A stretch of DNA of 64,000 nucleotides from an uncultured Gammaproteobacteria bacterium (GTDB taxonomy: Bacteria; Pseudomonadota; Gammaproteobacteria; SZUA-229), in contig CAVRHW010000034.1 in assembly GCA_963721085.1 (NCBI GenBank), positions 2,675 to 66,674 on the forward strand, written 5' to 3'. Numbering within the stretch: the first letter of the stretch is position 1; the number at the start of each line of letters is the position of its first letter. Below are positions 13,688 through 34,191 of the stretch, one piece after another. The position numbers and the translations under genes are program-made. The notes under the pieces were generated by a model that was not told where the DNA came from, ran no database searches, and worked only from the letters and a program-made list of their open reading frames with translations.

Positions 13688-13793
13688 ATAATAGAGATTT
13701 TCTCGAATATGAGAATATGTCAAGTGGGATTCTGGTGGTAAACCTCCGGCGTCAACCGGATTTAGAAGTCCCGTCAGCAGGCTGCGGTCCTGC

Positions 13794-14000: not shown

Positions 14001-14032
14001 TCACTGCGTTCATCGTCGGTGATCTCCATCAC

Positions 14033-14302: not shown

Positions 14303-14525
14303 CAGCCATATGAATCGGGAAGCCGTTGCAGTCTGACCGGCGGTAACAAGCACGCCGTTCATGGCGGTGTCCACAAAGCGCCATCGCGCAGATTGATGTG
14401 CGGCTGATCCGTCGAAACACGGTTCCGCTTAAGATATGAGTCAAGTTGCCTGTCGCCATCATCGACGGCATCCGGTACCCTGCTGTCTCGCAAAAACTCG
14501 GAAAATCGAAAGAGGCACGAGGCAA

Positions 14526-15143: not shown

Positions 15144-15167
15144 TCTTTAATGCCTGCTTGCCACGGT

Positions 15168-16692
15168 TCAGTACCAGGCATCAGGTAGTTCGCGCTTGCG
15201 CCGCTCGACATAGTCTTGCAGTGCTTCGTCCGTTGCGGGATCTATGAATGGGGCTTGATAGCTCTCAAGCAGGCTGTTCCAGCGCTCGAAGGCGCGTGTC
15301 TGCATGTCCTTCGAGCCGCGTTCTTCCCAGCTTTCCACGTTTTCGCTGTCCGACAATGCGGAATCGTAGAAGGCTGTGCGATAGTTTGCCATCGTATGTC
15401 CGCAACCGAGAAAATGCCCCGCCGGCTCGACTTCGCCATAGGCGTCACGGGCTAGTGCGTTGTCGTCGACATTCAGACCGGCGAGCAGTAGTTGGTAGGC
15501 GCCGAGTTCGATCGGCATCCATCACCAACTTCTCGAAACCGGTACAAAGGCCGCCTTCCAGCCAGCCGGCCGCATGCAGCACGAAATTAGCGCCAGCGAG
15601 CGCGGTGGAATGCATGGAATCGGCACTTTCATAGGCCGCCTGGGCGTCGGCAATCTTGGAGGCCGTCAGCGATCCGCCGCAGCGGAATGGCAGTCTCAGG
15701 CGCCGGGCGAGTTGACCGAAAACGTAATTGGACAGAACCGGTTCAGGCATACCGAAGGTCGGCGCGCCCGATTTGAGGCTCATCGAGGACAGGAAATTGC
15801 CCAGCACGAAGGGTGAGCCCTTGCGCACGAGCTGGCTGTAGGCACAGCACATCATTGCTTCAGCGAGCGCCTGGGCGATTGATGCAGCCGTTGTAACCGG
15901 TCCCATCGCGCCGGACAGAATGAACGGGGCGACTATGATGCCCTGGCCGGCGCCGCAATACACTTGGATCGCCTCGGTGACGACCCTGTCCACGAGGAGC
16001 GGCGAATTGGTGTTGACGTTGCCGAGGATGACGCAATTACTGTCAAAGACGGCGTCCCCGTGAAGTATACGTGCCATGGCGACGGAATTGACCGCCCGAT
16101 CCTTCTCGGTGATGGCGCCGAGATGCGGTTTGTCCGAATAGCGCATATGGCAATAGAGCATGTCGAGATGACGCTTGGAGACAGGCACGTCGCAGGGCTC
16201 GCAGGTCACGAAGCCGCCGTGGTGGAGGCTGGGTAGCCGGCTGGTCAGCTTAACCAGCTTTTCGAAATCGTCGATCGTTCCGTAGCGCCGCCCGCCTTCC
16301 AGGTCCCGGACGAAGGGCGGACCATAGACAGGAGCAAAAACCTGGCCGGATCCGCCGATCAAAACACTGCGCTCGGGATTGCGAGCGATCTGGGTAAAGG
16401 TGGATGGCGCGGTTGAACACAGGTTTCTGATGAGTTGGGCATCGGCACGTACGCGCGTCTCACGGACATCCGCCCCGGCTTCCTTCCATGTCACCAGTGC
16501 CTTTGGATCTTCGCGGAATTCGACACCGATTTCCTCGATCAGCCAGTCGGCCTGGTTTTCGAGCCGAACCAGGGATTCCTCATCGAGAATTTCGAAATAG
16601 GGAATCGCACGGCGAACATAGGCCGTTGTGGGCTGCGTTTCGTGAATACCGGCGCCGCGGTTTGAACGTCGGTGGCCTCTTCGTCTTGACAT
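15168..16692 (-). pseudogene. MttB-superfamily (non-pyrrolysine) methyltransferase, one frame change near 15,510
   Basis: 16692-15445 reads a typical MttB-family protein (MSRRRGHRR..., ...NVNTNSPLLVDR..., GFEKLVMDAD). The conserved C-terminus (ELGAYQLLLAGLNVDDNALARDAY...FLGCGHTMANYRTAFY) continues in another frame at 15518-15168. Confidence 0.85.
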
Positions 16693-16937
16693 TGCATACC
16701 CTCAAGCAAGCCGTCGGCTGACTATATTCGACCGCTTCGGACGCGTAACCGTAAAAAAACTTTGCGGTCGGGATAGTTCAGTTCATGTCTGGGTAGAGAA
16801 ATCCGAATACAAAATGCCGTTCGCGGGCCAGTCACCCGTGACGGAATCTGCACACTGTGGCTACGCGCGGGGTTGACGTGGCTGGAGCCGGACTACAAAG
16901 CGACGCATGATTTGACGTATGGAATTGGGAGATCTTC

Positions 16938-17837
16938 ATGGTGACTGTGATCGATGGCAAGGCTGCGGCTGAAAAGGTTTTGGAAAAGGTCAAGGAAGCG
17001 GCAGCGACCCTGAAGGCCGAAAGTGGAGTGACACCTGGTATCGCGGTTGTCATCGTTGGCGAGGACCCGGCAAGCCAGGTCTATGTGGCGTCTAAGGGTC
17101 GGACGGCGAAAGAATGCGGCTTTCACTCGATCGAGCACCGCCTGGCCCAAACGACGTCGCAGACCGCGTTGTTGAAACTCGTTGGCGAGCTCAACGACGA
17201 TCCCTCGATCCACGGCATCCTGGTCCAGCTTCCGCTGCCCGACCATATCGACGAAGGCAAGGTGATCGAGGCGATCAATCCGGACAAGGACGTCGACGGT
17301 TTCCATGTCATCAGTGCTGGAAGGTTGGCCGTTGGCGCGATTGATGAGGCATTCGTGCCCTGCACGCCGGCGGGCTCCATGTTGCTCATCGAGCAGGTTA
17401 AAGGGCATGATCTGTCTGGTCTCAATGCTGTCGTTATCGGCCGCTCCAATATTGTCGGCAAGCCGATGGCCATGCTCCTGCTTGCCGCCAACGCGACCGT
17501 TACCATTGCCCATAGCCGCACCCCGGATCTGCCGGCTACCTGCCGCAACGCCGACATCGTTGTCGCTGCGGTTGGCCGTCCGGAAATGGTCAAGGCCGAC
17601 TGGATCAAGCCTGGTGCGACGGTGATTGACGTGGGCATCAACCGGCTGCCGGCACCCGAGCGCGGCGAAGGCAAGACGCGGCTCGTAGGCGACGTCGACT
17701 TCAAGGCGTGTTCCGAGGTAGCCGGTGCGATCACGCCGGTGCCCGGCGGCGTCGGCAAGATGACCATAGCCATGCTGATGGCGAATACGGTGATTTCGGC
17801 CTACCGCGCGGCAGGCAAGACACCGCCGCATTTCTGA
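16938..17837 (+). CDS. folD: Bifunctional 5,10-methylene-THF dehydrogenase / methenyl-THF cyclohydrolase
   Basis: Intact 299-aa ORF with [34 protein letters not shown] and [11 protein letters not shown]. Confidence 0.95.
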
Positions 17838-18395
17838 TCACCCTGCGCTCCGTGTCGGGAACTTCGCAGCAAAAGGTTCGTTTTCGAGCCGGGCGACGTT
17901 CGCCACGAAGCTGACTGTGTTATAGGTGCCGCAGAGCGCCAGGATTTCCAACTGCTGCTCTGCGGTCCAGTCGGTTTCGAATTGGACCAGTGTCTTGCCG
18001 GACAGCATGCCGTCCCGGCACAACTGATCGATTGCTTCGATCAATGTTGCCTCCGTTTCGCTCCACAACGACCTGCAGATCGAAGGCTGACGCGTCGCGT
18101 TTATCTGTGCGTCACTAAGCCTCGCCTTCATCGCGAAAATAGTGACGTGCACGCCCCATTCATATTCGCAATTGCGATTGGCGGTCGTGCGCAGAATGAC
18201 GATCTCTCTCAAGCGCAGGGGAAGTGGACTATCGCGGTCCAGCAGATTGGGCACGCCCTTCGAAAGGAAGCGCCTGCTGTTGGCAAATGTGCGAAACAGC
18301 GTCAGCAGATAGCCGTCCTGTCTGGGGTAGTTCTCCAGGATTTCGGCGATGTCCGGCGGAAAGGGTTCCGAGAGCGGTACAAGTTTATTGGTCAT
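17838..18395 (-). CDS. Carboxymuconolactone decarboxylase (AhpD-like) family protein
   Basis: 185-aa ORF with CMD-family core ...ILRTTANRNCEYEWGVH... It is divergent from the HxlR regulator gene. Confidence 0.7.
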   Translation of the reverse strand: MTNKLVPLSEPFPPDIAEILENYPRQDGYLLTLFRTFANSRRFLSKGVPNLLDRDSPLPLRLREIVILRTTANRNCEYEWGVHVTIFAMKARLSDAQINATRQPSICRSLWSETEATLIEAIDQLCRDGMLSGKTLVQFETDWTAEQQLEILALCGTYNTVSFVANVARLENEPFAAKFPTRSAG

Positions 18396-18408
18396 GGTGT
18401 TGCTTGAT

Positions 18409-18452
18409 GCTACAAAATACGTAGCGAATTCGTACGCTACATTTTATGTAGC
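18409..18452. promoter_or_regulatory. Two GCTAC...GTAGC inverted repeats in the CMD/HxlR divergent promoter (candidate operator)
   Basis: GCTACaaaatacGTAGC at 18409-18425 and GCTACATtttATGTAGC at 18436-18452. Both lie between the two divergent start codons (18395 and 18471). Confidence 0.35.
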
Positions 18453-18470
18453 GTCAATGGAGAATGTGCG

Positions 18471-18812
18471 ATGAGTAAAAAACCCGGAAGCCCTGTGAGA
18501 GGATCGACAAGCGGGCGACCGATTATGGTACTGCTCGACGTTCTCGGACAGCGATGGACCTTGCGTATTCTCTGGGAGCTTCGCCTCGGCCGTGCAAGCT
18601 TTCGTGATCTGCGTAGGCGTTGCGATGACATTTCACCGACGATATTGAATGGCCGGCTGAAACAGCTGCGGCGAATGCAGCTTGTCGACTTGACCGAAGA
18701 CGGTTACGGCTACACGAAACAGGGGCGGCAATTGAGCGAACAATTCGTTCAGTTGGACCAATGGGCAGAGAAATGGGCTTGTAAGCTATCCGCTCCCCCG
18801 CCATCTCAATAA
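18471..18812 (+). CDS. HxlR-family winged-helix transcriptional regulator
   Basis: RPIMVLLDVLGQRWTLRILWELRLGRASFRDLRRRCDDISPTILNGRLKQL is the HxlR signature. Confidence 0.85.
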   Translation: MSKKPGSPVRGSTSGRPIMVLLDVLGQRWTLRILWELRLGRASFRDLRRRCDDISPTILNGRLKQLRRMQLVDLTEDGYGYTKQGRQLSEQFVQLDQWAEKWACKLSAPPPSQ

Positions 18813-18870
18813 ATCAGGCTGGAACCCTGACCGGCCGGGCCCGCCACAATGCAGCGGGCCTGGGTATTTC

Positions 18871-20670
18871 CTAACTGAGGTGATGCACGGCTTGGAGCCC
18901 GTAGACGGGTGTCGGGATGCCTTCCATCCGGGCCTTGATCTGCAGCGAGAGAAACTGCGAATAGTGCCGTGACTGGTGCAGGTTGCCACCGTGCATCCAC
19001 AGTGCTTCTTGCTGTGTGGGTTTCCACATATTGCGCTCTTCGCCTTCCCAGGGGCCCGGGTCCTTTGTTGTGCCGGAACCGAGTCCCCAGACTTTCCCGA
19101 CCTTGTCCGCCATGTCTTGTCCCATGAGGTCCGCGACCCAGCCGTTCATCGACCCGTAACCCGTGGCATAGACGATCAGATCGGCGTCGAGGTGCGTGCC
19201 GTCGTCCAGAACGACGCCGGTCTCGTCGACTTCGGTCACTTGTCCGCGTTTGAGCTTGATCTTGCCATCGATGATCAATTGGCTGGCACCGATATCGATG
19301 TAGTAGCCCGAACCACGACGGAGGTATTTCATGAACAGCCCCAAATCGTCGTCGCCCCAGTCCAGCCAGAAACCTGCCTTTTCCAGCCCCTCGTAGAAAT
19401 CCTTGTCGCGCTCTTTCATTTCGGCGTAAGCGGGAATCTGGAACTCGTGCAAAATTCGGTAGGGCAAGGAGGCGAAAATCAAATCGGCCTTCTCGGTCGT
19501 TACGCCAGCCTCAACGGCCTCTTCGGAATAGAGTGCTCCCAAGCCGACTTCCATCAGAGTGTCCGATCGTACGATATGGGTGGAAGTACGTTGCACCATC
19601 GTTACATCCACATCGTTTTCCCAAAGCGCCGAGGCAATGTCGTGGGCTGAATTGTTGGAACCGACCACTATGGCTTTCTTGCCCCTGTAAGCATCGGGAC
19701 CCGGATGCTTCGAGGAATGGTGCTGATCTCCTTTGAATTTTTCCATGCCGGGAAAGGACGGCACATTCGCCTTGCCGGACATGCCGGTTGCCATGACCAG
19801 TTGTTTTGGTTTCAGGACAACCTCCTCGCCGTCCCGATCCACGACAACCGTCCACTCCTTGGTTTTGTCGTCAAAGCTCGCGGCCTTGGCGGTGCTGCGG
19901 GTCCAGTAGTTCAGTTCCATCACTCTGGTGTACATTTCGAGCCAGTCGCCGATCTTGTCCTTGGGGCTGAAGACAGGCCAGTTCTCCGGAAACTTGATGT
20001 AGGGAAGATGATCGTACCAGACGGGGTCGTGCAGGCAGAGCGACTTGTAACGATTGCGCCAGCTGTCACCGGGTCGGTCGTTCTTTTCGACGATAATCGT
20101 CGGCACGCCGAGTTGACGCAGCCGTGCCCCGAGTCCGATTGCGCCTTGTCCGCCGCCGATGATGACGCAATAGGGCTGGGTCTTGTAACCGAGTTCTGCC
20201 TTTTCCCTTTCACGCTCCTCTTTCCAAGTCATCCGGTGCTTGCCCGCCCCGTGCTTTGCGCCCAGGGGCCGAGAGAACCCTTTGTGCTCCTCGTACCCTT
20301 TGAGTTCGACCATCGTCGTCAGGAGCGTCCATATCTTGCCCTCCTTGAGGCGGATCAGACCATATCCCCGGCCAGCCCCGGTTTCGAAGCTGATCCACGC
20401 TGTAACCACGCCGTCTTCCTTGGTCGGCACCTCTCCCTCGGCGAGTTGCCAGTTGGCCGGTTTGATGGCAGCAAGCTGATGCTCGAGCATGTCGCCGATC
20501 TCGTCCCGACCTTCCATGGTCTTGAGATTCCACGTGAAACTGACCAGGTCGCGCCAGTAACAATCCTGGAGAAACATGTCCTGCACGGCAGCGATGTCTC
20601 CGGCTTCAAGGGCGCGGTTGAATTGATCCAGAAATGTCTGTGTCTGGCTCACCAGTGGAGTATCGAGCAT
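18871..20670 (-). CDS. Flavin-dependent (FMO/Baeyer-Villiger-type) monooxygenase with an NTF2-like N-terminal domain
   Basis: The likely start is ATG 20670, preceded by GGAGGA. Dinucleotide motifs VIIGGGQGAIGLG and AIVVGSNNSAHD are present. The first ~130 aa look SnoaL/NTF2-like. Confidence 0.75.
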   Translation of the reverse strand: MLDTPLVSQTQTFLDQFNRALEAGDIAAVQDMFLQDCYWRDLVSFTWNLKTMEGRDEIGDMLEHQLAAIKPANWQLAEGEVPTKEDGVVTAWISFETGAGRGYGLIRLKEGKIWTLLTTMVELKGYEEHKGFSRPLGAKHGAGKHRMTWKEEREREKAELGYKTQPYCVIIGGGQGAIGLGARLRQLGVPTIIVEKNDRPGDSWRNRYKSLCLHDPVWYDHLPYIKFPENWPVFSPKDKIGDWLEMYTRVMELNYWTRSTAKAASFDDKTKEWTVVVDRDGEEVVLKPKQLVMATGMSGKANVPSFPGMEKFKGDQHHSSKHPGPDAYRGKKAIVVGSNNSAHDIASALWENDVDVTMVQRTSTHIVRSDTLMEVGLGALYSEEAVEAGVTTEKADLIFASLPYRILHEFQIPAYAEMKERDKDFYEGLEKAGFWLDWGDDDLGLFMKYLRRGSGYYIDIGASQLIIDGKIKLKRGQVTEVDETGVVLDDGTHLDADLIVYATGYGSMNGWVADLMGQDMADKVGKVWGLGSGTTKDPGPWEGEERNMWKPTQQEALWMHGGNLHQSRHYSQFLSLQIKARMEGIPTPVYGLQAVHHLS

Positions 20671-20914
20671 CTTGTCCTCCCTACGTCGAAGTCGATTCCC
20701 CAAGCGTCGCAGAAAAGAACCGGTTGCGCTAGAAATTTCGCCGGGGCAGATCTCGATACGTCTGGTCTTTGTATTGAAAACCGGGTTCGTCCCGGCAAAC
20801 GCATGACAAATGTCGACCGGATCATGCGGACGCACGTATTTCGGCAGAGACCCTCAGATGCAAACGGCAGTCCTCCGGAACCTGAGCAGTGCCGCTCCCG
20901 GGGGCAGTTCCGAT

Positions 20915-22732
20915 TCAATAGAGCACGCTGGCACCCTGGTCGGCCGGCCCGGCAACGGCCCTGAAATTGGCGAACAGTTCCCGACCCATGCCATGGTGGC
21001 TATCCGTGAGGTCGATCGTGGCCGGTTCACGGGCCGCGAACGCCTCCTGATCGATCAGCACCTCGATCGTGCCGGCCTCGGCGTCGAGGCGGATCGGGTC
21101 TCCGTCACGCAGACGGGCTATCGGCCCGCCATCGGAGGCTTCGGGTGTCATGTGGATCGCTGCAGGTACCTTGCCTGACGCACCGGACATGCGGCCGTCT
21201 GTCACCAGAGCGACCCGGAAGCCGCGGTCCTGCAACACACCGAGTGTCGGTGTGAGCTTGTGCAGTTCAGGCATGCCAATCGCCTTGGGTCCCTGGAAGC
21301 GGACTACGGCGATGAAGTCTCCGAGGAGTTCTCCTGTCTTGAACGCATCCAGAAGCGCCTGCTGACTGTCGAATATCCGGGCCGGAGCCTCGACGATCCG
21401 GCGTTCGGGCTTAACCGCTGAGACCTTGATCACGGCCTTGCCGAGGTTGCCGGTGAGAATCTTCAGGCCGCCATTGGTCTGGAAGGGCTTGTCGATGGTC
21501 GTCAGCACCTTGTCGTCGGCGCTTCTTGCCGAAGCCGGATCGCGAACGACGCTGCCGTCGTCGGCAAGCTTCGGCTCGATGGCATAGGCCGCCATGCCTT
21601 CACCCCACACGGTCCGAACATCATCGTGCAACATTCCTTCCGAAAGCAGTTGCGAAACCAGGAAACCCAGACCGCCGGCGGCATGGAAGTGGTTCACGTC
21701 GGCCGGACCGTTGGGATAGACGCGGGCGAGCAGCGGAACGATGTCCGACAGGTCCGAGATATCCTGCCAGCTCAACCGGATTCCGGCGGCCTGAGCCATT
21801 GCGATCATGTGCATGGTGTGATTGGTCGATCCGCCGGTCGCGTGCAACCCGACCAGACCATTGACCACGCTGCGTTCGTCGAACATGATTCCGGCGGGCG
21901 TATACTCGTTGCCGAGCGCCGTGATTGCTAGCGCCCGCTTGGCGGCTTCCCTGGTGAGCGCATCGCGCAGCGGCGTTCCCGGATTGATGAAGGATGCGCC
22001 GGGCAGGTGGAAGCCCATGATCTCCATCAGCATCTGGTTCGAATTGGCAGTGCCATAGAAGGTGCAGGTTCCCGGCCCGTGATAGGATTCGGATTCGGCC
22101 TCGAGCAGTTCCGCCCGCCCGGCTTTTCCTTCGGCGTAGAGCTGGCGGATCCGGACCTTTTCGTCATTGGGCAGGCCCGATGTCATCGGCCCTGCAGGAA
22201 TGAAGACCGCCGGAAGGTGGCCGAACGACAGAGCGGCAATCACGAGGCCGGGCACGATCTTGTCGCAGACGCCAAGGAAACAGGCCGCATCGAACATGTT
22301 GTGCGACAGGCCGACAGCCGCCGAAAGGGCAATCACGTCGCGTGAGAACAGCGACAGGTCCATGCCGTCCTGCCCCTGGGTGACCCCGTCGCACATGGCC
22401 GGTACGCCTCCGGCTACCTGTGCTACACCACCGGCCTCGCGAGCTGCGGTGCGGATGAGGTCGGGGAAATGCTCGAAGGGCTGATGTGCCGAGAGCATGT
22501 CGTTATAGGCCGTGATGATACCGAGATTGGGGACGACGTCACCGGAGAGTGCCGTCTTGTCGGCAATGCCGCAGGCGGCGAAGCCGTGGGCAAGATTGCC
22601 GCAGGACAGTGTTGCGCGATGCGGTCCGGCACCGGCGGCCCTTTCGAGTCGTTCGAGATAAGGTTGGCGTGTTGGTTTCGAACGCTCCACGATGCGCCCC
22701 GTGATGGCTTCGATGTCGCTTCTCGCACTCAT
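20915..22732 (-). CDS. edd: Phosphogluconate dehydratase (Entner-Doudoroff)
   Basis: The likely start is ATG 22732. IlvD/Edd motifs are present: [33 protein letters not shown]. Confidence 0.95.
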
Positions 22733-22757
22733 TTCTTGACTGCCTTTCGATATCGGA

Positions 22758-23459
22758 TCAGGGAGCCCAGAAGATCTGGACCGGTTGCGTCGCCTTTTTA
22801 AGGATAGCGCGGACTGGATATTCGTCGACCGGTCCCTCCCGCAGCGCCGCATCGAGTGTCGCCTTCTTGCTATATCCCTCGATGTGCAGGACGACGAGGC
22901 GGGTGCTGGCCAGGATCGGCAATGTCATTGTCAAACGCGGCTCGGGAACCCCTTCGCCTTCTGACGCCATAACCGAATAACTCTGGTCGGCGGCGGTCAG
23001 TTCCGCCAGGTGGCCGTTCCCCGGAAACCAGGATGCCGTATGCCCATCCTCTCCCATGCCGAGTATCGCCACGTCGAACGTGCCTTCGAGTCCGTCGATG
23101 GTTTCCGATGCCAGTTTCGCGGCTTCTGCCGGGGTCTTGTCGACACGGAACAGCGGAATGAAGACTGCAGCAGACGCTGCGTTCTGTAGCAGATGGGCGG
23201 CGACCAGACGATGATTGGAGCGTTCGTTCGAGGGGGGTACGAACCGCTCGTCGACCAGGGTTACGGTTACCTTGTCCCAGGCGATGGGTTTGTCGCTCAA
23301 TACCTTGAACAGGTTTTTCGGCGTCGAGCCACCCGATACAGCGATCATGGCCCTACCGCGCAGTTCGATGGCATCCGCAAGAGCCGTCGCGATTCGGTCT
23401 CCAAGGTCGTCGACCAGTGCCTCACGGCTGTCAAAGACGTACAGGACGGGTTCTTTCAT
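22758..23459 (-). CDS. pgl: 6-phosphogluconolactonase
   Basis: [19 protein letters not shown] and [13 protein letters not shown]. The gene lies between zwf and edd. Confidence 0.9.
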
Positions 23460-23466
23460 CGGCTGA

Positions 23467-24845
23467 TCAACTGCTCTCGTGCCAGGTCCGGCCGTCCCTC
23501 TCGATCAGCGCGATCGATTGTGACGGGCCTTGGGTCCCGGCCGTATAGGTGTTGGCCCGCTGCGCGGTATCCTCCCAGGCCTTGAGAATGGGGTCGATCC
23601 ACTGCCAGGCTGCTTCCACTTCGTCACGGCGCATGAACAGAGTCTGGTTGCAGCGTATGACATCCATCAGAAGGCGTTCGTAAGCATCCGGATTACGGAC
23701 GCCGAAGGCTTCCGCGAAGCTCATGTCTAGCGGCACGTGACGCAGCCTCATGCCGCCCGGACCCGGATCCTTGATCATGATCCACTGGCGCACGCCTTCG
23801 TCCGGCTGCAAACGTATCACCAACTGGTTGGCGATCACGCGTCCGGCGCTGCTGTCGAAGATCGAATGCGGTATCGGTTTGAAGGCCATGACGATTTCGG
23901 ACACACGCGAAGCCATACGTTTGCCGGTACGCAGATAGAACGGTACGCCCGCCCAGCGCCAGTTGCGAATCTCCGCCTTGATGGCGACGAAAGTTTCCGT
24001 GTCTGATTGTCCGTCGCCAAGCTCGTCGAGATAACCCTTGACCGCCCCGCCCGATGAGGCGCCGGCACGGTATTGGCCGCGCACCGTCAACCTCTCGGCA
24101 TTTTCCTCGGTTATGGGGCTGAGCGCGCGCAGCACCTTCAGCTTCTCGTCGCGTACAGCCTCGGCCTGGATCGAGGTCGGCGCTTCCATGGCAACGAGAC
24201 ACAGCAATTGTAGGATGTGGTTCTGCACCATGTCGCGCAGTGCGCCGGCCTTGTCGTAGTAGCCGGCCCTTCCTTCAAGACCAACCTCCTCCGCCACGGT
24301 AATCTGCACATGGTCGATATGGGCGGAATTCCACAACGGCTCATAGAGCGCATTTGCAAAGCGCAACGCCATCAGGTTTTGGACCGTCTCCTTGCCGAGA
24401 TAGTGGTCGATGCGAAAAATCTGCTCCTCGGGGAATACCCCGCCTATGGTGTCGTTGAGCACGCGCGCCGTAGCAAGATCGCGGCCGATTGGCTTCTCGA
24501 CCACGACACGGGTTTGGTCGGTTACCAGGCCGTGTGTCTGAATGCGTTCGCAAATCTCGCCGAAGAGGGAGGGTGCGACGGCAAGATAGAATGCCCGCAC
24601 GCGATGTTCGCCTTCCTTCAGGATCACGCCCAGATCGTTCCAGCCCCGGTCGGAATTGGCATCGATCGAAACGTAGTGCAGCCGCTCCAGGAACCGTGCG
24701 ACTTCCCGCTCGTCGAATTCTTGGGGTTTCAAATATTCGGCGAGCGCCTCGCCGGCGAAATTCCGGTATTGTTCGTCATCGAGTTCAGATCGGGAGGCCC
24801 CGATGATACGGGTGGGTTCCGAAAGCTGACCGGCAATCTGTCCTC
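23467..24845 (-). pseudogene. zwf: Glucose-6-phosphate 1-dehydrogenase, 5'-truncated at the chimeric junction
   Basis: The frame is Zwf-like from ...GQIAGQLSEPTRIIGASRSELDDEQYRNF... through RIDHYLGKE and EKPIGRDL to the stop at 23467. The first ~45-50 codons, including the GxxGDLA NADP motif, are missing and are replaced by unrelated sequence at ~24,845. Confidence 0.9.
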
Positions 24846-25217
24846 CACACCACTACAAAATCTCCGCTGGCCGTCCATTGCAACGCTGGGTGCTGTTTGA
24901 GCAGCGGTCGTCCAGGTATTGACCTGAAACTCATTACCCGCTGTCGTGCCGTCAGCATTGTAACGTTGAGCGAAGATACCGGCTGAATCACCGTCCTCGC
25001 CACCATAATCTGCCCACACCACCACATAATTGCCGCTCGCGTCCATGGCGACATGGGGGAATCTCTGATTTAGCGATGTGTATGTATTGACCTGAAACTC
25101 AGTACCGGCTCTCGGGCCAGTGGGAGCCGGAGTAGCACTGGCCACCGGGCTATAGAGCGGGCTATTGAGCGCAAGCAGCAGGGCGGCCGCCAGAGGGGTC
25201 CGTTTGATTGGGTACAT
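24846..25217 (-). pseudogene. N-terminal fragment of a secreted repeat protein (FQVNT..VAMD..G-[FY]VVVW..GIFAQRY units), 3'-truncated at the junction
   Basis: A GGAG lies 6 nt before ATG 25217. Signal peptide: MYPIKRTPLAAALLLALNSPLYSPVASA. Two repeat units follow. The second carries one extra G (VAMD-G-ASGDFVVVW) and stops being interpretable at ~24,846, where zwf sequence begins. Confidence 0.6.
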
Positions 25218-25443
25218 TTGCATCTCCATGAGGGGCTGCGGCCCCAACATGGGTCAAGCGCACAGCGGACTAAAATATAAAGACTGATAATACCTGAATT
25301 CCCCAACCCTGACGACAACCGCTTATCGTCTGACAGGAGCTATTCATCCTCTCTTCGCCTTTAGATTCAATCAATTATGACTGTCGCTAAATCACAGGCA
25401 TATCCCTGGCCATCCCTGTTCATGGCACATTCCAGCTATCATG

Positions 25444-27485
25444 CTATCGTTCCAGCATGGTATGCACACTTGCGACAAAATCGTCCACTGCCTGCTGATC
25501 TTCGAACAAGGCCTCGCAGCCTTTGAGCACGGCCTGGCTAGCTTGCTGACGCAAGGTTTCATCACTGGCAAGTGCGATGGCTTTGTTTACATAGTCATCC
25601 CAGTTTTCCGCCACCAGATCCATATAACCCATCTGTTGATATGCGGCACAGGTATAGCGGCCACGATGCATGACTGACGGCCAGGTGACGACCGGCGTGC
25701 CTGCGGCAAAAGCATCGTAATTGGTATTGGCGCCGCCGGTGTAATGAAAGGTATCCAGAATAACATCGACGATTTTTACCAGACCAAGATATTGTGCTGC
25801 AGGCATACGACCGAGAAAACGCAGACGCTCTGAAACATCCGGCATGTTGTTTGTTAATCGCTGTTGCAAATGTTGCGTGACTGTTATCTGCTTATCATGA
25901 ATGAATATAATGATCGCCCTGTCATCTTTGAGCAAAAGCTGTTTGAACACTTCATCCATATCCGGGTGGACCTTGCGCAGGTTTTGCGTACAAAGATACA
26001 GGTGGTCGTGTTCATTAAAGCCAAACTGTGTTCTGTCAAAATCGCCATTCCGGCACCGGCGGACGATAATAAAATACCGGCAATCTTGGCAGCATATACA
26101 ATTGTTCGCTATAAAATGCCTGTGCATTTTGTGTTTCAAGATATTTGCAGGACAAATAATAATCCATCTCTGCGATACCTGACGTTACCGGCCAGCCCCA
26201 GAAGCCAACCTGCAGGCGCGCAGCTTTGAAAAACGGTAAAAAATAATTCAGGCTATCGGTGCCCGCTTCCCAGTAATAGAGTATATCGAGTTCAAGTGCA
26301 TGAATTTGAGTGGCGGCAGTTTCGAGATCCGGGTCGAGTTCGACAAACATCGCATCGGGCAGTTCTTTTGACAGAATGTGTTTTCCATTGGGTGCAACAC
26401 ATAGCACGCGCACATCAAGCGAATCCGGCAATTGCCTGATCAAGCCTGCCATGCATTTTAAAAACACACCTTCATGACCGCGTGTAACAATAAAACCAAT
26501 TTTGGGTTTTGCGCCCTGCTCTCTTGCTGGCAATGCCGGCAGGGGTTGAATCACATGATCGAATAACTCAGCAAAGCGCTCTCTCAGCTCGAGATCATGC
26601 TCGCCGTAATACGCCATAATTGAAGGTGGCGTAAGGTCATACTTGATTGTTTTTTTCAGATCGAAAATCTGGCCAGTCACTTCATCGAGCGTAGCGGACA
26701 GGTTTTGCATCATATCCGCAATCTGCTCTTTACTTTCGGGTATAAGCGGAAACACGGTCGCCCGTTTGAGAATTAAATGAATACAACCGGGATTGAGCGC
26801 CTGCAATGTATCAATACACTGCAGCGCCTGTTCGCGCAGGTCCTGAGATTCATACAGCTGAAACAGATTATGGTATGCGTCTGCAAAATCAGGTTTGAGT
26901 TCGACCGCCTTTATATAATGTGCCAGTGCATCGTCAAAGCGGTCCCATTCCTTGAGCACAACACCAAGATTATTATGTGCCTGCGCATTATTGGGATCGA
27001 TGCGTAGCGCTGCTTCATAGGCGTCGATCGCGGTGCGATACCGCCCCGCCGCCTGTAGCGCATTACCGTAATTATAATGGTAGCTCGCATTGTCAGGCAT
27101 CAGCGCTATCGCGCGCTCATAATGTTGCAGCGCTGCCTGCAAATGATTCTTCTGTTTCAGCACATTGGCCAGATTAAAATGCACCAATGGTGAATTCGGC
27201 TGCGTCTGCAGTACCGCTCTGAAATTCGTCATCGCTTCATCCAGAAGCTCGGCCTGCACCTGCGCCTGGCCGAGATTAATCAGGTAATGTGGATGCTGAG
27301 GCTGCAACGCCAGCGCATGCTCAATATAAGCAATGCCCTGGTTGACGCGCCCATCCTGACTGCACAGCGTGCCAAGCAAATTCAATATATCAGCATGTTC
27401 CGGAAATGATTCCAGCGCCTGGACGATAAATCTGTTCAGCCTGCGCCAGCTGGCCTTGCTGATGTAGACGCACAGCGTTCTGCAT
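25444..27485 (-). pseudogene. TPR-repeat protein fused to a SPINDLY/OGT-like (GT41) glycosyltransferase domain, two frame changes
   Basis: N-terminus at 27485 (MQNAVRLHQQGQLAQAEQIY). 27385-26036 carries about 6 TPRs (AIALMPDNASYHYNYGNALQAAGRY...) and the start of the GT41 domain. 26139-25444 carries its end (FHYTGGANTNYDAFAAGTPVVTWP..HRGRYT). Frame shifts lie near 27,400 and 26,050-26,140. Confidence 0.75.
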
Positions 27486-27516
27486 ATGGCGATTCAGTTC
27501 ATCGGGTGTCACTGCT

Positions 27517-28002
<486 letters not shown>

Positions 28003-28113
28003 TTAATATTACCAGCGAAACTGACATCACGCGGAGATCGCAAAGAAAATAATGTGGACGACCCGCTTTCTGACATGTTTAAGCTTTAACTGCTTATTTG
28101 AAAATACAGGCGT

Positions 28114-28136
28114 AAAAAAAGCCCGGCTTGCGGGCT
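28114..28136 (-). terminator. Rho-independent terminator downstream of the 55-aa ORF
   Basis: On the minus strand, AGCCCG-caagc-CGGGCT is followed by a U7 run (plus-strand A7 at 28114-28120). A second 9-bp hairpin, GCTGCGCGA...TCGCGCAGC, lies at 28151-28179. Confidence 0.6.
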
Positions 28137-28187
28137 CTTCAGATCCAGTCGCTGCGCGATCCCGGCAGGGTCGCGCAGCTGACTGTC

Positions 28188-28355
28188 TTATGGCTTCTTG
28201 GGAGTCTGGTATGGTACTTCTTTCTGAAAAGATTTCCAGGTAGTTTCATAACCCACAAAAAACTGTCCAGGCGTAATGGTTTTCTGTGTGGTTGTTACAT
28301 ATTCTGTCTTGCCTTCAGGAACCTGAGGTCTTGTAAATACTGGCTTGTCGCTCAC
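28188..28355 (-). CDS. Small hypothetical protein (55 aa), below the ORF-track cutoff
   Basis: A GGAG lies 8 nt upstream of GTG 28355. The ORF reads SDKPVFTRPQVPEGKTEYVTTTQKTITPGQFFVGYETTWKSFQKEVPYQTPKKP*. Two hairpins and a U-run follow the stop. Confidence 0.4.
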   Translation of the reverse strand: MSDKPVFTRPQVPEGKTEYVTTTQKTITPGQFFVGYETTWKSFQKEVPYQTPKKP

Positions 28356-28432
28356 AATTATTACTCCTAATGGTTGAAAACGGGAGGAAATTCAACAGGG
28401 TTGTCAGCCCCTCCCAGTTAAACTGGCTGATA

Positions 28433-28849
28433 TTATACTACCTGACGCGTGTAATGTCCCTTCTTCGTCACATGTCTCACCCCTCCCTGGGGGTTCTCAA
28501 CATCGCCCCTGTAGCGGGGAATGATGTGAATATGGACATGCATGATGCTCTGCCCGGCTGCCGGCCCTATATTAACGCCGATGTTGTAGCCGTCAGGGCT
28601 GAACTCCTGATCCAGCAGCTTGCGCTCCTCAAGGATCAGTTCCATGCAGGCGCTGACCTCGTCGGGCGTCAGGTCGAAAAAGCTGGCCACATGGCGCTTC
28701 GGAATGACCACCGAATGGCCCGGGCTCGCCGGATAGGTATCGCGGGCGCTGTACGCAAGCTCGTTTGTCAGGGACACGCCCTGTGGATCTGTGCAGAACA
28801 GGCAGGGATTATTGGGGTCTCGCTTTTTTTCCTGTTTTTCTCTGGACAC
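28433..28849 (-). CDS. HIT-family (histidine triad) nucleotide hydrolase/transferase
   Basis: The histidine triad HVHIHIIPR is present in a 138-aa ORF. Confidence 0.85.
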   Translation of the reverse strand: MSREKQEKKRDPNNPCLFCTDPQGVSLTNELAYSARDTYPASPGHSVVIPKRHVASFFDLTPDEVSACMELILEERKLLDQEFSPDGYNIGVNIGPAAGQSIMHVHIHIIPRYRGDVENPQGGVRHVTKKGHYTRQVV

Positions 28850-29086
28850 CAGTTAATACCCTTCATCTAACTCAGTCTATTTGCCATTGATTTCAGCAAC
28901 CAGGGCCGCCGGTTAGTGACCAGAAGCCTGCAATCTCGATAAGCTGTAACTTTACCGCTTTCAAGGCATAAACATAATAGGTTACAGATATAATATTTTT
29001 TTAACCCGGTATATCGATATCTAATAGATGATCGTTTGCAGGGTCATTCTCCATGCTCTGTGGCAAGAGAGCTGGCCCGATTTGTC

Positions 29087-29587
29087 ATGGATTCCGCAGC
29101 GGAGCCCGTCATACGGTATAATCCAGCATTGTCCACAATCACTGATGAGGTAGCTATCTTGACACCTAATAAAGGACGAGCTTACTTCGGACTCGTTGGT
29201 TACCACTTTAATCCTGACGATATTACACGTCAGCTTGGTATAGAACCCACCTCAAGCAATAATGCAGGGGCATACGGCACCCTGGATAAGCCGGTGATCA
29301 GTTCCTGGGAATTTTCAACACCCACGATCACTTCGGAAACTCAGGAAATCGATATTTACAAACTCATTGATGATGAAATTCTTAAAAAAATCGAGCCGGC
29401 CAAACAGAAAATTATCGATATCTGTAAAAGCCATAACCTGTCACCAAGAATCGGCGTCGTCCTGACCCTGTCTATTGATAAGGATGAAACGACTCCAGAT
29501 GTCGGTTTCGGTGCACGAGTGATTAAATTCTGTTCCGAGATTGGCGCATTCATTAACGTGGATTACAAACTTTCCGAGCGGATTTAG
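29087..29587 (+). CDS. DUF4279-like hypothetical protein in an AT-rich pocket
   Basis: The ORF is open from 29036. The pattern YFGLVGYHFNPDDITRQLGIEPTSS...SSWEFST resembles the DUF4279 N-terminal signature. The start is uncertain. Confidence 0.45.
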   Translation: MDSAAEPVIRYNPALSTITDEVAILTPNKGRAYFGLVGYHFNPDDITRQLGIEPTSSNNAGAYGTLDKPVISSWEFSTPTITSETQEIDIYKLIDDEILKKIEPAKQKIIDICKSHNLSPRIGVVLTLSIDKDETTPDVGFGARVIKFCSEIGAFINVDYKLSERI

Positions 29588-29686
29588 GGAAACACCGGTT
29601 AATTCAGGGTTTCCGCGACACATCCATCTCGTGCCCTGAGAATTCATGGATGAATTATTCAGAGCCTCCTGGTAAACCTTGTTCTT

Positions 29687-30721
29687 CTATGCCTGGCCGC
29701 TAATAGCGCCTGCCAGAGAGAGCGCTTTGTTACGCTGCTCTTCGCAGTGTTTAACGCACAGCGGCTGCAAAGCGTGCGGGAAACATTCCATAATCACTTC
29801 AAATTCATCGGCAACATCTTCTGCCAGTGCGGCATCATTTGTTAACGCCGCCAGCTTGCCTCGCGCAGTTACCTTGTTTACCCTGCAGAGCACAGACAGG
29901 TGCACCGGGCGTTGCTGCTCCATACAAACTTTCCAGGCAGTTTCGTAGGACCTTGCCGCCTCTTCAAAGCGATCAGGATTTTCTTCTGATTCAGCCAGGT
30001 TAAGTAACACTGCCCCGCAATTATTATGTGCAGCTGCAAGCTCAACCGGGTAATTATCAGCATCGAGCTCTGAAATCGCATTTTTATAGGCGACAACCGC
30101 CTTCTGAAAAGTACGATTACCTTTCAGCAGTGTCCCGTAGGTATGAAGGGTCATGCCCAGCTGCAGCATGATCAATTTCCATTCTTCCGGTGTTTCTTTT
30201 TTCGTATACACCAGTAACGCCGCGGTATAGGCATCAACCGCATTATTCAGTGCCTTGGCATCTGATTCGAGTCGACCCAGGGCGTGTAGCGCCGTTGCCA
30301 GGTTTGCCTGCATTGCAGCCCATTCTAACGGTGAGTCTTCCTGCTTATATTCCTGCAATGCAAGCGTAAAACACTCAACAGCCTTCTGAAAGACACCGGA
30401 ATCGTGCCGCTGTTGTCCGATGGCGCCAAGAATATTTCCCAGGCGGTTTTGCGTTTCAGCCCAGGCTACTGGATCCTGTTTACGAAGTTCATCTGTCAGC
30501 GACGCCTCAAGCGCATCACGTAAATTTTCAAATACATTTGCACTGAAAATATGCTGCTCAAAATTGCCACGCGTATAAAGAAAATTATCTACGACCGGTA
30601 CACTTCTGTCAGGCGTAGCAAGTTTCAGCATTTCTTCATCAAGCAAGCCAAGAGAACTCGCCACAGCGCGTTCGAGTACGCGGTTCACAGGGTATAAGAT
30701 GTATGGCTTTGAATAATTCAT
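29687..30721 (-). CDS. TPR-like helical-repeat protein, translationally coupled to the upstream FKBP gene
   Basis: 344-aa ORF with repeated W-xx-Q-xx-LG-x-L / A-V-x-AY-x-AL helical pairs. Its ATG overlaps the FKBP stop (ATGA at 30718-30721). Confidence 0.65.
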   Translation of the reverse strand: MNYSKPYILYPVNRVLERAVASSLGLLDEEMLKLATPDRSVPVVDNFLYTRGNFEQHIFSANVFENLRDALEASLTDELRKQDPVAWAETQNRLGNILGAIGQQRHDSGVFQKAVECFTLALQEYKQEDSPLEWAAMQANLATALHALGRLESDAKALNNAVDAYTAALLVYTKKETPEEWKLIMLQLGMTLHTYGTLLKGNRTFQKAVVAYKNAISELDADNYPVELAAAHNNCGAVLLNLAESEENPDRFEEAARSYETAWKVCMEQQRPVHLSVLCRVNKVTARGKLAALTNDAALAEDVADEFEVIMECFPHALQPLCVKHCEEQRNKALSLAGAISGQA

Positions 30722-31227
30722 TCTGCTCGCGCGAGTATTTCGTTTAAGTCCGGGTTGGCGTCAATGGGACCACCATGCTCGATTTCTTCATCAGTAGCGT
30801 CACGTATCAACAACACTTCCAGCACGAAGGTAACATCTCTGCCGCAAAGTGGATTATTACCATCAACGGTCAAGGTCTTGTCATCAAAGCGTGTAACGAT
30901 GAAATTTTTCATTTCACCCTTTTCATTTTCCATAGTGATGGTCATGCCAATCTCCCGGTATTCCTCTGGCACGTTTTCGATATGGTCGGTAAATACCAGC
31001 GACTCGTCTCTTTCACCATATAACAGCGTGGTATCAATGGGCACTTCGATGACATCACCCACTTTCTTACCATAAAGATGTTTTGTCACATCTTCTGACA
31101 TCACATCATTAGCACCATGAACATACCCCAGGGGGTAGTCCACCGTAACAAGTATATCGCCGGTTTTATCATCGACGACCTTATAATTGAGTTCAACGAA
31201 TTTTCCGTCTTCAATTGTATCTGACAT
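30718..31227 (-). CDS. SlyD-like FKBP-type peptidyl-prolyl cis-trans isomerase
   Basis: VELNYKVVDDKTGDIL...YPLGYVHG...LYGERDESLV...VDGNNPLCGRDVTFVLEVLLIRDATDEEIEHG matches the FKBP plus insert-in-flap layout of SlyD-type chaperones. Confidence 0.8.
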   Translation of the reverse strand: MSDTIEDGKFVELNYKVVDDKTGDILVTVDYPLGYVHGANDVMSEDVTKHLYGKKVGDVIEVPIDTTLLYGERDESLVFTDHIENVPEEYREIGMTITMENEKGEMKNFIVTRFDDKTLTVDGNNPLCGRDVTFVLEVLLIRDATDEEIEHGGPIDANPDLNEILARAE

Positions 31228-31259
31228 ATTGAATCAACCTGTTTATTACTAATGATGTT

Positions 31260-31610
31260 TTAAAATAACGTTGCACCGAAAATCCTTACCTTCTCCTTTT
31301 CATAGCCCAGCACCAGCCTGCCCAGCCATTCCGCTTTGGTTTTTTTATTAAGCACCTTATAAAGCACAGTGACATATTCACCTCGGCGTATCATGCCGAG
31401 ATAGGTATAATCTTCCGACAGGTTCTTAGCTAAATCGCTTCTCGCAAACTGTTTACCCATCTCAACTTCGTTTGCGCCCTGCATGAACGAAGATGAAAAG
31501 TTACGTGTAAAAGCACCGTAATTGCCTTCATTAGAGTACTTGACCAGATCCGCCCACATTGGGTTGGCAAGCTCCAGAATCTCTTCATCTGTTTTTTCAA
31601 TTATATTCAT
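31260..31610 (-). CDS. Hypothetical protein (116 aa) immediately downstream of aprA
   Basis: Intact ORF in the same orientation as aprMBA and the FKBP/TPR pair. I recognise no family. Confidence 0.55.
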   Translation of the reverse strand: MNIIEKTDEEILELANPMWADLVKYSNEGNYGAFTRNFSSSFMQGANEVEMGKQFARSDLAKNLSEDYTYLGMIRRGEYVTVLYKVLNKKTKAEWLGRLVLGYEKEKVRIFGATLF

Positions 31611-31724
31611 CGTGTAACTCCATTAAAAAAACATGATCGTTTTTTAATATTAAGCTTTAATCTGATATTCAAATCTAAAGATAAAAAAAGGACCAACATT
31701 TTTACATGTCAGTCCTTCTTTAAG

Positions 31725-31768
31725 AACAAATATTGCCTGACTGGCTCAGAAGACCAGGCCAGTCAGGC
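31725..31768 (-). terminator. Strong hairpin 10 nt downstream of aprA (terminator or attenuator)
   Basis: Perfect 11-bp stem, GCCTGACTGGC (31735-31745) / GCCAGTCAGGC (31758-31768), with a 12-nt loop, followed on the minus strand by AAUAUUUGUU. Confidence 0.55.
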
Positions 31769-31778
31769 CTATATTTGT

Positions 31779-33671
31779 TTAGTGCTCACCACCAGCTGGT
31801 TTTTTCTCTACATCACCAACCAGGTGATACAAAGGCGCCTTCTCCATGGTGTATTCGCCAGTCTTAGGATCACGACGAGAAACTGTCAGCACGTGCCAGT
31901 TCGCATCATCCAGTTTCATGGCATCACCACGATAGTAGTAACCCGGCCAGCGTGTTTCCTTACGGAACAACGTATGCTGGAACACACTTTCAGAAGTCAA
32001 CCAACGATGCTTCAGCTCCCATGCACGCAGCAGTTCGTGAATATCTGAAGCCGCAACCTTGTCCAGGTCTTCACCCAGGATTGCCATCTTCTTCAGACCG
32101 ATGCTCAGCAGCTTGTCATTGGTCATGTAGTTAACACCAAAACCACCACAATACTCATCCATCAGTTTCTGCAGACGATCCAGACCCTGACGTGGGTTGA
32201 TGAAGTTAGGATTAACCGATCCAGCAACGACTTCGTTACTATAAACACGATATGTTTCCAGTGGCTTGTAGATTTCTTCTCTACGACGGTTAATCTGCGC
32301 ATCAGACACGCGAATGCCTTCAGCCTTGCCATCATCGATATACTGACATGCGGCTTTAGCAGCCAAACGGCCTTCAGTAAAAGAGCCCGATGAGAATGCA
32401 TGTGGTGTACCGCCTACGGCGTCACCTGCACCGAACAGACCTTCGACAGTCGTCATACGGTTGTAGCCCCAGAAATATTCTGGTGGTGATACGTCTTCAG
32501 GACCTGAACACCATGCGCCACAACCGGTTGCATGTGAACCCATAACATAAGGCTCGGAAGTTGTCAGCTCAGGGTTTTCGTACTTGGGATCAACGTCAGT
32601 TGCCGCCCACAGTACCGCCTGACCAACAGTCATACCCAGGAAGTTGTGCCAGCCAATTTCCTCAAGATGCGGATCCTGGAAGGCTTCCATGGTCACCATG
32701 TGAATAGGACCACGACCTGCATTAACCTCGTTGATAATTGCGTGGTTACGCAGACAGGTCGGAATTGGACGATGTGTTCTATGGGAAACTTCCGGGTCCA
32801 GATATTCCTTGCCTACCATTTCCTGCAGGGCCGGGAACCATTTGGATTCGTACTCTTCACCGTAAGCATTCTGAGTATAGGTTTTCAGATGCAGGAAGTA
32901 AGCACCAACAGGGCCGTAACCATCTTTGAATCGAGCCAGTACGATACGGTTTTCCATCTGGGTCATTTTCGCGCCGGCTTCGATCATCAGACCATAAGCA
33001 GAACCTGATGACCATGGAGCGTACCAGACACGACCGGCACCTTCACCAACCGAACGTGGTTTAAAGATGTTAGAAGCACCACCAGCACCACAGATCACAG
33101 TCTTGGACTTGAATACGTGGTAGTTACCAGTACGGACGTTGAAACCAACAGCACCCGCTACGCGGTTCTCTTTGGATTCATCCATCAGCAGATGAGTCAC
33201 ACAGATACGGTTGAATACCTTGTCTGCTGATTTTTTCGCAGCTTCTGCAACGATCGGCTTATATGATTCACCGTGAATCATGATCTGCCAGCGACCTTCA
33301 CGCAGATACGCACCGGTCTTGGTGTTGCGCATGATGGGCAGGCCCCATTCTTCAAACTGGTGCACAGCGGAGTCAACGTGACGTGCCATATCAAAGGCCA
33401 GGTCTTCACGTACCATACCCATTAAGTCGATACGCGCATAACGTACGTGATCTTCAGGATTGTTTTCGCCGAAGCGTGTGCCCATGTAGCAGTTAATTGC
33501 ATACAGGCCCTGTGCTACCGCACCAGAACGATCGATGTTTGCTTTTTCTGCAATCACAATCTTCTTGTCTTTGCCCCAATATCTTGCTTCGAAAGCAGCA
33601 CCGGTACCACCAAGGCCCGCACCTGCAACCAGGATGTCGATATCGTCTTCAATAATTGTCTTGTAGCCCAT
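31779..33671 (-). CDS. aprA: Adenylylsulfate (APS) reductase alpha subunit
   Basis: 630-aa flavoprotein with FAD motif ILVAGAGLGGTGAAFE. The remaining sequence is typical AprA. Its start overlaps the aprB stop (TGATG). Confidence 0.95.
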   Translation of the reverse strand: MGYKTIIEDDIDILVAGAGLGGTGAAFEARYWGKDKKIVIAEKANIDRSGAVAQGLYAINCYMGTRFGENNPEDHVRYARIDLMGMVREDLAFDMARHVDSAVHQFEEWGLPIMRNTKTGAYLREGRWQIMIHGESYKPIVAEAAKKSADKVFNRICVTHLLMDESKENRVAGAVGFNVRTGNYHVFKSKTVICGAGGASNIFKPRSVGEGAGRVWYAPWSSGSAYGLMIEAGAKMTQMENRIVLARFKDGYGPVGAYFLHLKTYTQNAYGEEYESKWFPALQEMVGKEYLDPEVSHRTHRPIPTCLRNHAIINEVNAGRGPIHMVTMEAFQDPHLEEIGWHNFLGMTVGQAVLWAATDVDPKYENPELTTSEPYVMGSHATGCGAWCSGPEDVSPPEYFWGYNRMTTVEGLFGAGDAVGGTPHAFSSGSFTEGRLAAKAACQYIDDGKAEGIRVSDAQINRRREEIYKPLETYRVYSNEVVAGSVNPNFINPRQGLDRLQKLMDEYCGGFGVNYMTNDKLLSIGLKKMAILGEDLDKVAASDIHELLRAWELKHRWLTSESVFQHTLFRKETRWPGYYYRGDAMKLDDANWHVLTVSRRDPKTGEYTMEKAPLYHLVGDVEKKPAGGEH

Positions 33672-34153
33672 CAGTATTGCACCCCTTCTTTAATTTCCAG
33701 GCCATTTGATTCCAGTGTATGCAAACCACCTTCATCCATACGAATGTACTTGGGCTCGTTAAACAGGTACTGACTGCTACGCATGTCATTGCCTGGTGCT
33801 GCTACGTCAGATAGCTGTGGAATAAACTTGCCCCATGGCTTGGTTGTAATAGGCGCCAGAAGCTCCATGTCTTTTTTACCGTTGCGGAACTTGATGCGCC
33901 ACGCAATCGTGCCTTTTTCTTCATCACGGTGTACTCGTACCGAGTGACCCAGTGGAGCGAAATCTGCATAGCCACGCACGTCAATCGCGTGATGAGGGCA
34001 GGCTTTTACACAGGAATAACATTCCCAGCACATGTTAGGTTCGATGTTGTAAGCACGACGAAGAGCTTTATCGATGTGCATGATGTCAGATGGGCAGATA
34101 TCAACGCACTGCCCACAACCATCACATCGAGTCATATATACAAAAGTTGGCAT
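33671..34153 (-). CDS. aprB: Adenylylsulfate reductase beta subunit (2x[4Fe-4S])
   Basis: MPTFVYMTRCDGCGQCVDICPSDIMHID...CWECYSCVKACP, plus the AprB-specific C-terminal tail. Confidence 0.95.
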   Translation of the reverse strand: MPTFVYMTRCDGCGQCVDICPSDIMHIDKALRRAYNIEPNMCWECYSCVKACPHHAIDVRGYADFAPLGHSVRVHRDEEKGTIAWRIKFRNGKKDMELLAPITTKPWGKFIPQLSDVAAPGNDMRSSQYLFNEPKYIRMDEGGLHTLESNGLEIKEGVQY

Positions 34154-34191
34154 AATATTCTCTCTTTAAATAATTGTTATTAACTTAAATG

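Follow-up and report, generated by a model that had tools for sequence, protein, structure and literature searches.

Results

Left-hand block and the zwf remnant

The stretch of DNA analysed here (64,000 nucleotides, referred to as the window) holds two gene blocks, the first of which occupies positions 1-24842 and comprises an EPS cluster, an mttB-family gene, folD, an FMO-like gene and an edd-pgl-zwf group. The edd gene (20915-22852, minus strand; true start probably near 22744) is intact and matches TIGR01196 with 1040 bits; pgl (22758-23459, minus strand) is also intact, an identical Pgl protein being encoded on a Logan contig from another sample (L001); zwf (23467-24842, minus strand) is truncated at its 5' end, with codons 39-496 kept according to protein and contig alignments and to the TIGR00871 profile. 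Domain and profile matches agree with the initial annotation in placing an EPS cluster and zwf-pgl-edd on this side. Among GTDB species representatives, the best 80 Zwf loci listed all belong to Hyphomicrobiales, the top matches (86%) being those of Flavimaribacter sediminis and Hoeflea sp. CAU 1731, and the order glnA-like-zwf-pgl-edd-folD-HD-HTH-GNAT...exoP-like recurs in both of these cultured Rhizobiaceae relatives (L165 and L166), whose synteny with the window extends from 24840 to about 11165. Zwf relatives, synteny, near-identical contigs and composition together point to an alphaproteobacterial, Hoeflea/Flavimaribacter-like (Hyphomicrobiales) source for this block.

The zwf-pgl-edd region of the same species is present in two other samples. 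A Logan contig (L001, SRR10447620) is 99.38% identical to positions 21437-23529 of the window, and a JGI contig of 4020 nt (L002, 3300037398) is 99.36% identical, with 0 gaps, to positions 22971-24842; the other 2148 nt of L002, on which zwf is full length, carry the zwf 5' end together with YunG, RidA and glnA-like genes and have no match in the window. The 25 differences between the window and these two contigs are all substitutions, nearly all of them at third codon positions, and none falls within 328 nt of the joint; they represent genuine variation between strains of an existing species whose zwf is intact.

Near the joint, the translated minus-strand Zwf frame reads ...GGQIAGQLSEPTRIIGASRSELDDEQYRNF..., and reading of the three minus-strand frames of 24640-25260 gives ...WCGGQIAGQLSEPTRIIGASRSELDDEQYRNFAGEALAEYLKPQEF... 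for the Zwf frame, in which a TAG stop (24855-24853) lies four codons upstream of the joint. A protein search retrieved a full-length Zwf of 496 aa (P0001) that is 100% identical to the remnant over all 459 residues, its first 39 residues, MRDKTMSSQTIPVDPFDYVVFGGTGDLAERKLLPALYHR, being the part without counterpart in the window; the NCBIfam TIGR00871 (zwf) match starts only at profile position 30. The missing part of zwf is 38 codons and 1 nt long, or 33 codons should translation begin at the second Met, and it includes FGGTGDLAERKLLPALYHR. The earlier reading had the start of zwf cut at about 24,845 with 45-50 codons gone; the truncation and the loss of the NADP-binding GxxGDLA motif stand, but alignment to P0001 and L002 puts the number of missing codons at 38.

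Right-hand block

The second block extends from 24843 to the end of the window at 64000 and comprises a repeat-protein gene, a GT41 gene, tadA, a HIT gene, aprM-like/aprB/aprA, dabAB, cbbLS with an alpha-carboxysome, guaAB, xseA, dksA, gluQ and acs. Between guaA and tadA lie cbbLS, the alpha-carboxysome genes (CsoS2, CsoSCA, CsoS4, CsoS1), dabAB and aprBA with a QmoC-like membrane subunit, so that the assignment of aprMBA, DAB and an alpha-carboxysome to this side is upheld, the gene called aprM being QmoC-like. AprA was dropped as a taxonomic marker because the apr block is common to very diverse taxa at 73-83% nucleotide identity, and for that reason GuaB and backbone synteny were taken as markers instead. 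The best 80 GuaB loci listed come from Gammaproteobacteria, except for one MAG of the Burkholderiales, formerly Betaproteobacteria, at 69% and three labelled to phylum only; the top identities are 82-88%, and Thiolinea stands at 76%. The order acs-gluQ-dksA-xseA-guaB-guaA is shared with MAGs that carry a Gammaproteobacteria or Thiotrichaceae label. The best-match taxa of the two flanks, which had been attributed to different classes on gene content, do differ, Zwf pointing to Hyphomicrobiales and GuaB mainly to Gammaproteobacteria.

Closer to the joint, tadA (27517-27975, minus strand), a tRNA adenosine deaminase gene by its Pfam match, adjoins the GT41 gene in the ENA contig L084 and guaA in a further relative (L085), and the latter arrangement ties the DNA near the joint to the gammaproteobacterial backbone. 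The gene next to it (25435-27512, minus strand) encodes a SPINDLY-like TPR/GT41 glycosyltransferase whose tblastn matches fall in three frames owing to two frameshifts (at about 27422 and 26040). Its closest full-length relatives, on ENA contigs L083 and L084, share 83% and 77% of their amino acids and are 692 and 680 aa long, respectively, and both contigs have the order tadA - GT41 - large secreted repeat protein. Exact-protein look-ups of tadA, aprA and HIT returned no record, and no contig of the same species was found for this side. On the evidence of GuaB relatives, core synteny, domains and composition, the block derives from a gammaproteobacterial sulfur oxidiser nearest to Thiotrichaceae-labelled MAGs, and these 39 kb are one gammaproteobacterial core-chromosome segment, not an island.

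The truncated repeat-protein gene

Between the GT41 gene and the joint lies a secreted repeat-protein gene (24845-25217, minus strand) that is truncated at its 3' end and has orthologues on L083 and L084. Its ATG is at 25217, with GGAG 8 nt upstream, and the public gene call P0121 starts at the same codon. The part kept encodes a signal peptide followed by two repeats of 56 aa of the form FQVNT.T...Q..P.VAMDASG..VVVW (period of 168 nt in the DNA), the protein breaking off after ...ASGDFVVVW at 24845. The bases immediately upstream of the zwf remnant are thus, as first proposed, the middle of the second repeat of an unrelated secreted protein with its own SD, ATG and signal peptide at 25,217. 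The orthologues are 594 aa (L083) and 732 aa (L084) long, are 66% and 55% identical to it over the signal peptide and the first two repeats, and contain about eight repeats, a CLIPPER domain and a PEP-CTERM-like tail. L083 aligns to the window DNA from 27961 to 24845 at 77.8% identity and then continues with 1.4 kb more of the repeat gene that is absent from the window, indicating that only the first ~126 of ~600-730 codons (~20%) are kept and ~80% of the gene is missing. A homology search with the N-terminus of the repeat protein found no relative above 64% identity besides the contig's own call.

About 30 nt from the joint, near 24873 in the second repeat, a 1-nt insertion shifts the frame; it is evident both from the spacing of the internal DNA repeats (168 vs 169 nt) and from one extra base in 'GACGGCCAGC' in the alignment with the L083 orthologue, and it accounts for the dot in the string 'SVAMD.ASGDF' of the initial annotation. 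Because of this insertion P0121 (162 aa, 24729-25217, minus strand) runs out of frame from the repeat gene over the joint into zwf DNA as far as 24729, and its crossing of the joint means that the joint exists in the contig as deposited (116,808 bp). Once corrected for the insertion, the repeat frame meets a stop 57 nt beyond the joint, within zwf DNA. The join makes neither an in-frame nor a functional fusion: the corrected repeat frame ends at that stop, and the zwf remnant lacks a start codon, a promoter and the dinucleotide (NADP)-binding motif.

Position and make-up of the joint

An abrupt alpha/gamma junction had been placed near 24,845; alignments to L002 and L083 refine this to a breakpoint between 24,842 and 24,843, at which two cut genes on the same strand meet mid-gene against mid-gene. 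In the base-level alignment to L002 the last common base is 24842: the native contig reads ...CTATCACC followed by GACAGATTGCC, and the window reads ...GTGTGGAG followed by GACAGATTGCC. Identity to L002 begins at 24842 and homology to L083 ends at 24845, which confines the switch of source to about 24,843 with an uncertainty of at most 2 nt, the left edge being set by identity to L002 and the right edge by orthology only, the nearest relative there being ~78% identical in nucleotides and not of the same species. The two intervening nucleotides, 24843-24844 (minus-strand AG), agree with neither native zwf nor any alignable orthologue. They are the only bases that fit neither source, and the description of two genes abutting without intergenic DNA is borne out; the window sequence has no spacer, adapter or run of N at the joint.

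No other protein spanning the joint was found by homology search besides P0121. The 27-mer that flanks the joint on its right side had 0 exact matches in GTDB species-representative genomes and 0 in JGI metagenome contigs, and these searches lend no support to both flanks being contiguous loci of one genome. As a separate observation, the hexamer CAGATT comes after the VVVW of repeat 1 and is met again on the zwf side of the joint; microhomology at the joint through this hexamer is speculation on our part.

Composition across the joint

Overall G+C is 0.578 in the left-hand block and 0.520 in the right-hand block, and 0.606 against 0.495 in the 5 kb on each side of the joint. Earlier hand counts (about 55-75% vs 45-55%) therefore had the direction of the difference right but overstated the left side. 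Mean GC3 of genes is ~0.68 on the left vs ~0.55 on the right (Mann-Whitney p = 5e-5), and the tetranucleotide profiles of the two sides correlate at 0.64, whereas 4-kb windows on the left correlate with their own side at 0.94-0.955. Fourth-order Markov models trained on positions 1-20000 and 30001-64000 were used to score the withheld stretch 20001-30000; there the cumulative log-likelihood ratio reaches its maximum at 24,885, some 40 nt from the joint as defined by homology. G+C, GC3, tetranucleotide and Markov results agree on a shift of composition at the point where the content changes; GC skew has no informative break at the joint.

Mobile elements, repeats and frameshifts

Searches for tRNAs, repeats and domains bear out the earlier statement that no IS end, tRNA, att-like repeat or integrase marks the joint. 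No tRNA or tmRNA occurs in the whole 64-kb window, and the ORFs within 5 kb of the joint encode no integrase or transposase domain. At the joint itself there are no terminal inverted repeats, target-site duplication or IS end, nor any inverted or direct repeats other than the internal repeats of the repeat gene. The hallmarks of an IS or transposon junction (transposase, terminal inverted repeats, target-site duplication) and those of a genomic-island boundary (integrase or recombinase, tRNA/att site, direct repeats) are accordingly lacking there, and in the place of accessory cargo the right-hand block has guaA, guaB, xseA, dksA, gluQ, tadA and acs in backbone order. The longest match between the two halves spans 19 nt and includes one mismatch; it is no better than expected by chance and lies well away from the joint, and a shared repeat as cause of a misjoin in the assembly graph was rejected on that account.

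Genes in both halves of the window contain frameshifts, at least 16 in total: at least three in the asnB-like gene and one in mttB on the left, and, on the right, one in the repeat-protein gene, two in the GT41 gene, at least five in dabA, one in csoS2, two in guaA and one in gluQ; the apr block, compared with three relatives, has none. Their occurrence in essential genes such as guaA argues for consensus indel errors, not decay, and their presence on both halves means that the assembly as a whole is indel-prone. The sites are not in long homopolymers and follow no clear homopolymer pattern. Near the joint, the 3.4 kb to its left contain no indel and the 2.7 kb to its right contain 3, a difference that is not significant (estimated p ~0.09). 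Frameshift density as a proxy for a step in coverage was rejected, frameshifts being found on both halves.

Discussion

The change of source in the middle of this contig can be placed to within two nucleotides and is seen in several independent kinds of evidence, and we consider it very probable that the contig is an inter-class chimera, an artefact of assembly or library preparation that would combine a Hoeflea-like alphaproteobacterium with a Thiotrichaceae-like gammaproteobacterium. The flanks are assigned to different organisms by several genes (Zwf and its synteny on one side; GuaB, synteny and GT41/tadA on the other), the composition switches at the same coordinate (Markov peak at 24,885; GC3; tetranucleotide correlation of 0.64), and each of the broken genes continues elsewhere in DNA that is absent here, on the left in the same species (L002) and on the right by orthology only (L083, L084). 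The initial annotation had preferred a chimeric contig, and, as far as sequence can tell, its preference is supported by taxonomy, by the continuations elsewhere, by composition and by the lack of any signature of mobility. DNA of two co-occurring organisms would have been joined into one contig of 116.8 kb, either through a chimeric molecule or read (by ligation or template switching) or through a misjoin by the assembler or scaffolder. With so many frameshifts in each half, the assembly is indel-prone and was probably made from long reads, perhaps with incomplete polishing; in such an assembly one chimeric read may have bridged two low-coverage contigs; the end of the right-hand fragment within a gene of 168-nt tandem repeats would be a typical break point of an assembly path.

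A related possibility, which we regard as unlikely, is that two finished contigs were pasted end to end without Ns when they were scaffolded, binned or submitted. Each of the two genes just breaks off, as genes do at contig ends; the right-hand end in the tandem repeat and the left-hand end beside the most conserved part of zwf are both typical break points; and there is no demonstrable microhomology. However, pipelines normally insert Ns, and the 64-kb window contains no second joint of this kind, both blocks being internally collinear with their relatives. Since such a concatenation would still be an artefact, the practical conclusion is the same.

A joint that exists in a living cell is a far less probable explanation. 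It would require that at least 39 kb of gammaproteobacterial chromosome entered the zwf gene of a Hoeflea-like host by illegitimate recombination, or the reverse, and we judge this very improbable. A clean joint between two genes on the same strand is compatible with such an event, and the occurrence of apr genes in some Hyphomicrobiales MAGs, with AprA identities of 88-89%, implies that sulfur-oxidation modules can cross classes. Against it, the foreign block would be core chromosome in gammaproteobacterial order and no accessory island, its composition would be entirely unameliorated, and both genes at the joint would have been destroyed with integrase, tRNA, inverted repeat and target duplication all absent; moreover, the zwf locus of the same species is intact in two other samples, and the joint recurs in no other contig searched and comes from an error-prone assembly. 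Rearrangement within one genome by an IS, transposon or integrative element is effectively refuted, because the flanks belong to different classes and no transposase or integrase within 5 kb, terminal repeats, duplication or tRNA accompanies the joint.

If the chimeric reading is correct, any bin or MAG that contains this contig inherits false gene content. The alphaproteobacterium would falsely appear to possess a carboxysome, RuBisCO, DAB and APS reductase, and the sulfur oxidiser would falsely appear to possess an Entner-Doudoroff operon and a rhizobial EPS cluster, while the spurious 162-aa P0121 is already in protein databases; a split at 24,842/24,843 would therefore be needed before metabolic inference or inference of HGT is drawn from it. 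Were the joint real, it would represent a striking, recent transfer of core chromosome between classes, in which the host would carry unameliorated core chromosome of another class and a complete set of alpha-carboxysome, DAB and apr genes within zwf; nothing in the sequence favours this.

Compared with known systems, the contig most closely resembles the chimeric contigs of metagenomes, with which it shares two unrelated taxa, an abrupt switch of composition, cut genes and the lack of a biological junction signature. Misassembly between species or genomes is a recognised class of metagenome error that is targeted by metaMIC (10.1101/2021.06.22.449514), DeepMAsED (10.1101/763813) and MetaPlatanus (PMC8682757). 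A genomic island would likewise present a large block of atypical composition against native DNA, but the present block differs from an island in its core housekeeping content and backbone synteny, in having no integrase, tRNA or direct repeats, and in that the boundary genes are destroyed. Chimeras formed in vitro, by ligation in long-read libraries or by template switching in MDA or PCR, join unrelated molecules directly, at arbitrary positions and with 0-2 untemplated bases. The present joint, which is direct and without a spacer, may be of this kind, although no adapter remnant lies at it. Short-read chimeras, in contrast, usually form at shared k-mers or repeats, whereas here the halves have no common sequence longer than 19 nt, and the joint has more in common with one made by a chimeric read or by scaffolding in an indel-prone assembly.

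Results and discussion

In the relative L085, guaA and tadA adjoin each other (3442-3932), whereas in the window they lie 26.5 kb apart (27975-54553); the autotrophy and sulfur genes are thus an insertion within the gammaproteobacterial backbone. Besides cbbLS with an alpha-carboxysome and dabAB, the intervening DNA carries the apr block (28186-35085), which comprises genes for HIT, DUF4279, 344-aa and FKBP-like proteins, aprA, aprB and a QmoC-like aprM; it is collinear, at 73-83% nucleotide identity, with loci of very diverse taxa, including Gallionella, Sideroxydans, Thioalkalivibrio, Sedimenticola and Hyphomicrobiales MAGs, and its G+C content of 0.42-0.50 falls below that of the remainder of the right half. 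The block resembles a horizontally mobile module. A 55-aa ORF (MSDKPVFTRPQVPEGKTEYV...; 28188-28355, minus strand), for which NCBIfam returned no match, is conserved beside the apr loci of dozens of fetched genomes, at amino-acid identities of at most 84% (tblastx).

Numerous genes are disrupted by frameshifts, in the left and right halves of the window alike. On the minus strand these are an asnB-like gene (197-1967, at least three frameshifts), mttB (15171-16701, one), the TPR/GT41 glycosyltransferase gene (25435-27512, two), dabA and dabB (36279-41829, at least five in dabA, with dabB also broken), csoS2 (49463-51444, one) and guaA (54553-56126, two); on the plus strand gluQ-RS (60466-61342) has one. 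None of the frameshift sites falls within a long homopolymer. Since the load in dabA far exceeds the expectation from the average rate, this gene may represent a genuine pseudogene or a stretch left locally unpolished.

In the alphaproteobacterial half, an FMO-like monooxygenase gene and one for a CMD-family protein lie between edd and folD (17838-20835), and the mttB-family methyltransferase gene (15171-16701) between folD and the HD gene, all of them additional by comparison with the cultured Flavimaribacter and Hoeflea sp. CAU 1731. Within the mttB-family gene lies a match (15577-15669, minus strand; 39.1 bits, cutoff 38 bits) to Rfam PYLIS_3, the pyrrolysine insertion sequence of mttB; because no in-frame UAG is present at that site, the match probably reflects coding-sequence conservation in a non-Pyl MttB homologue.

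The secreted repeat protein truncated at the joint has full-length orthologues encoded on two contigs from gammaproteobacterial relatives, L083 (4495-6279) and L084 (9263-11461). In addition to a CLIPPER domain, these orthologues contain about eight FQVNT...VAMD..GDFVV.W repeats; their terminal hydrophobic stretch, followed by an Arg-rich tail (e.g. ...LLFAIPLWLRRRWLR), resembles a PEP-CTERM/exosortase sorting signal.
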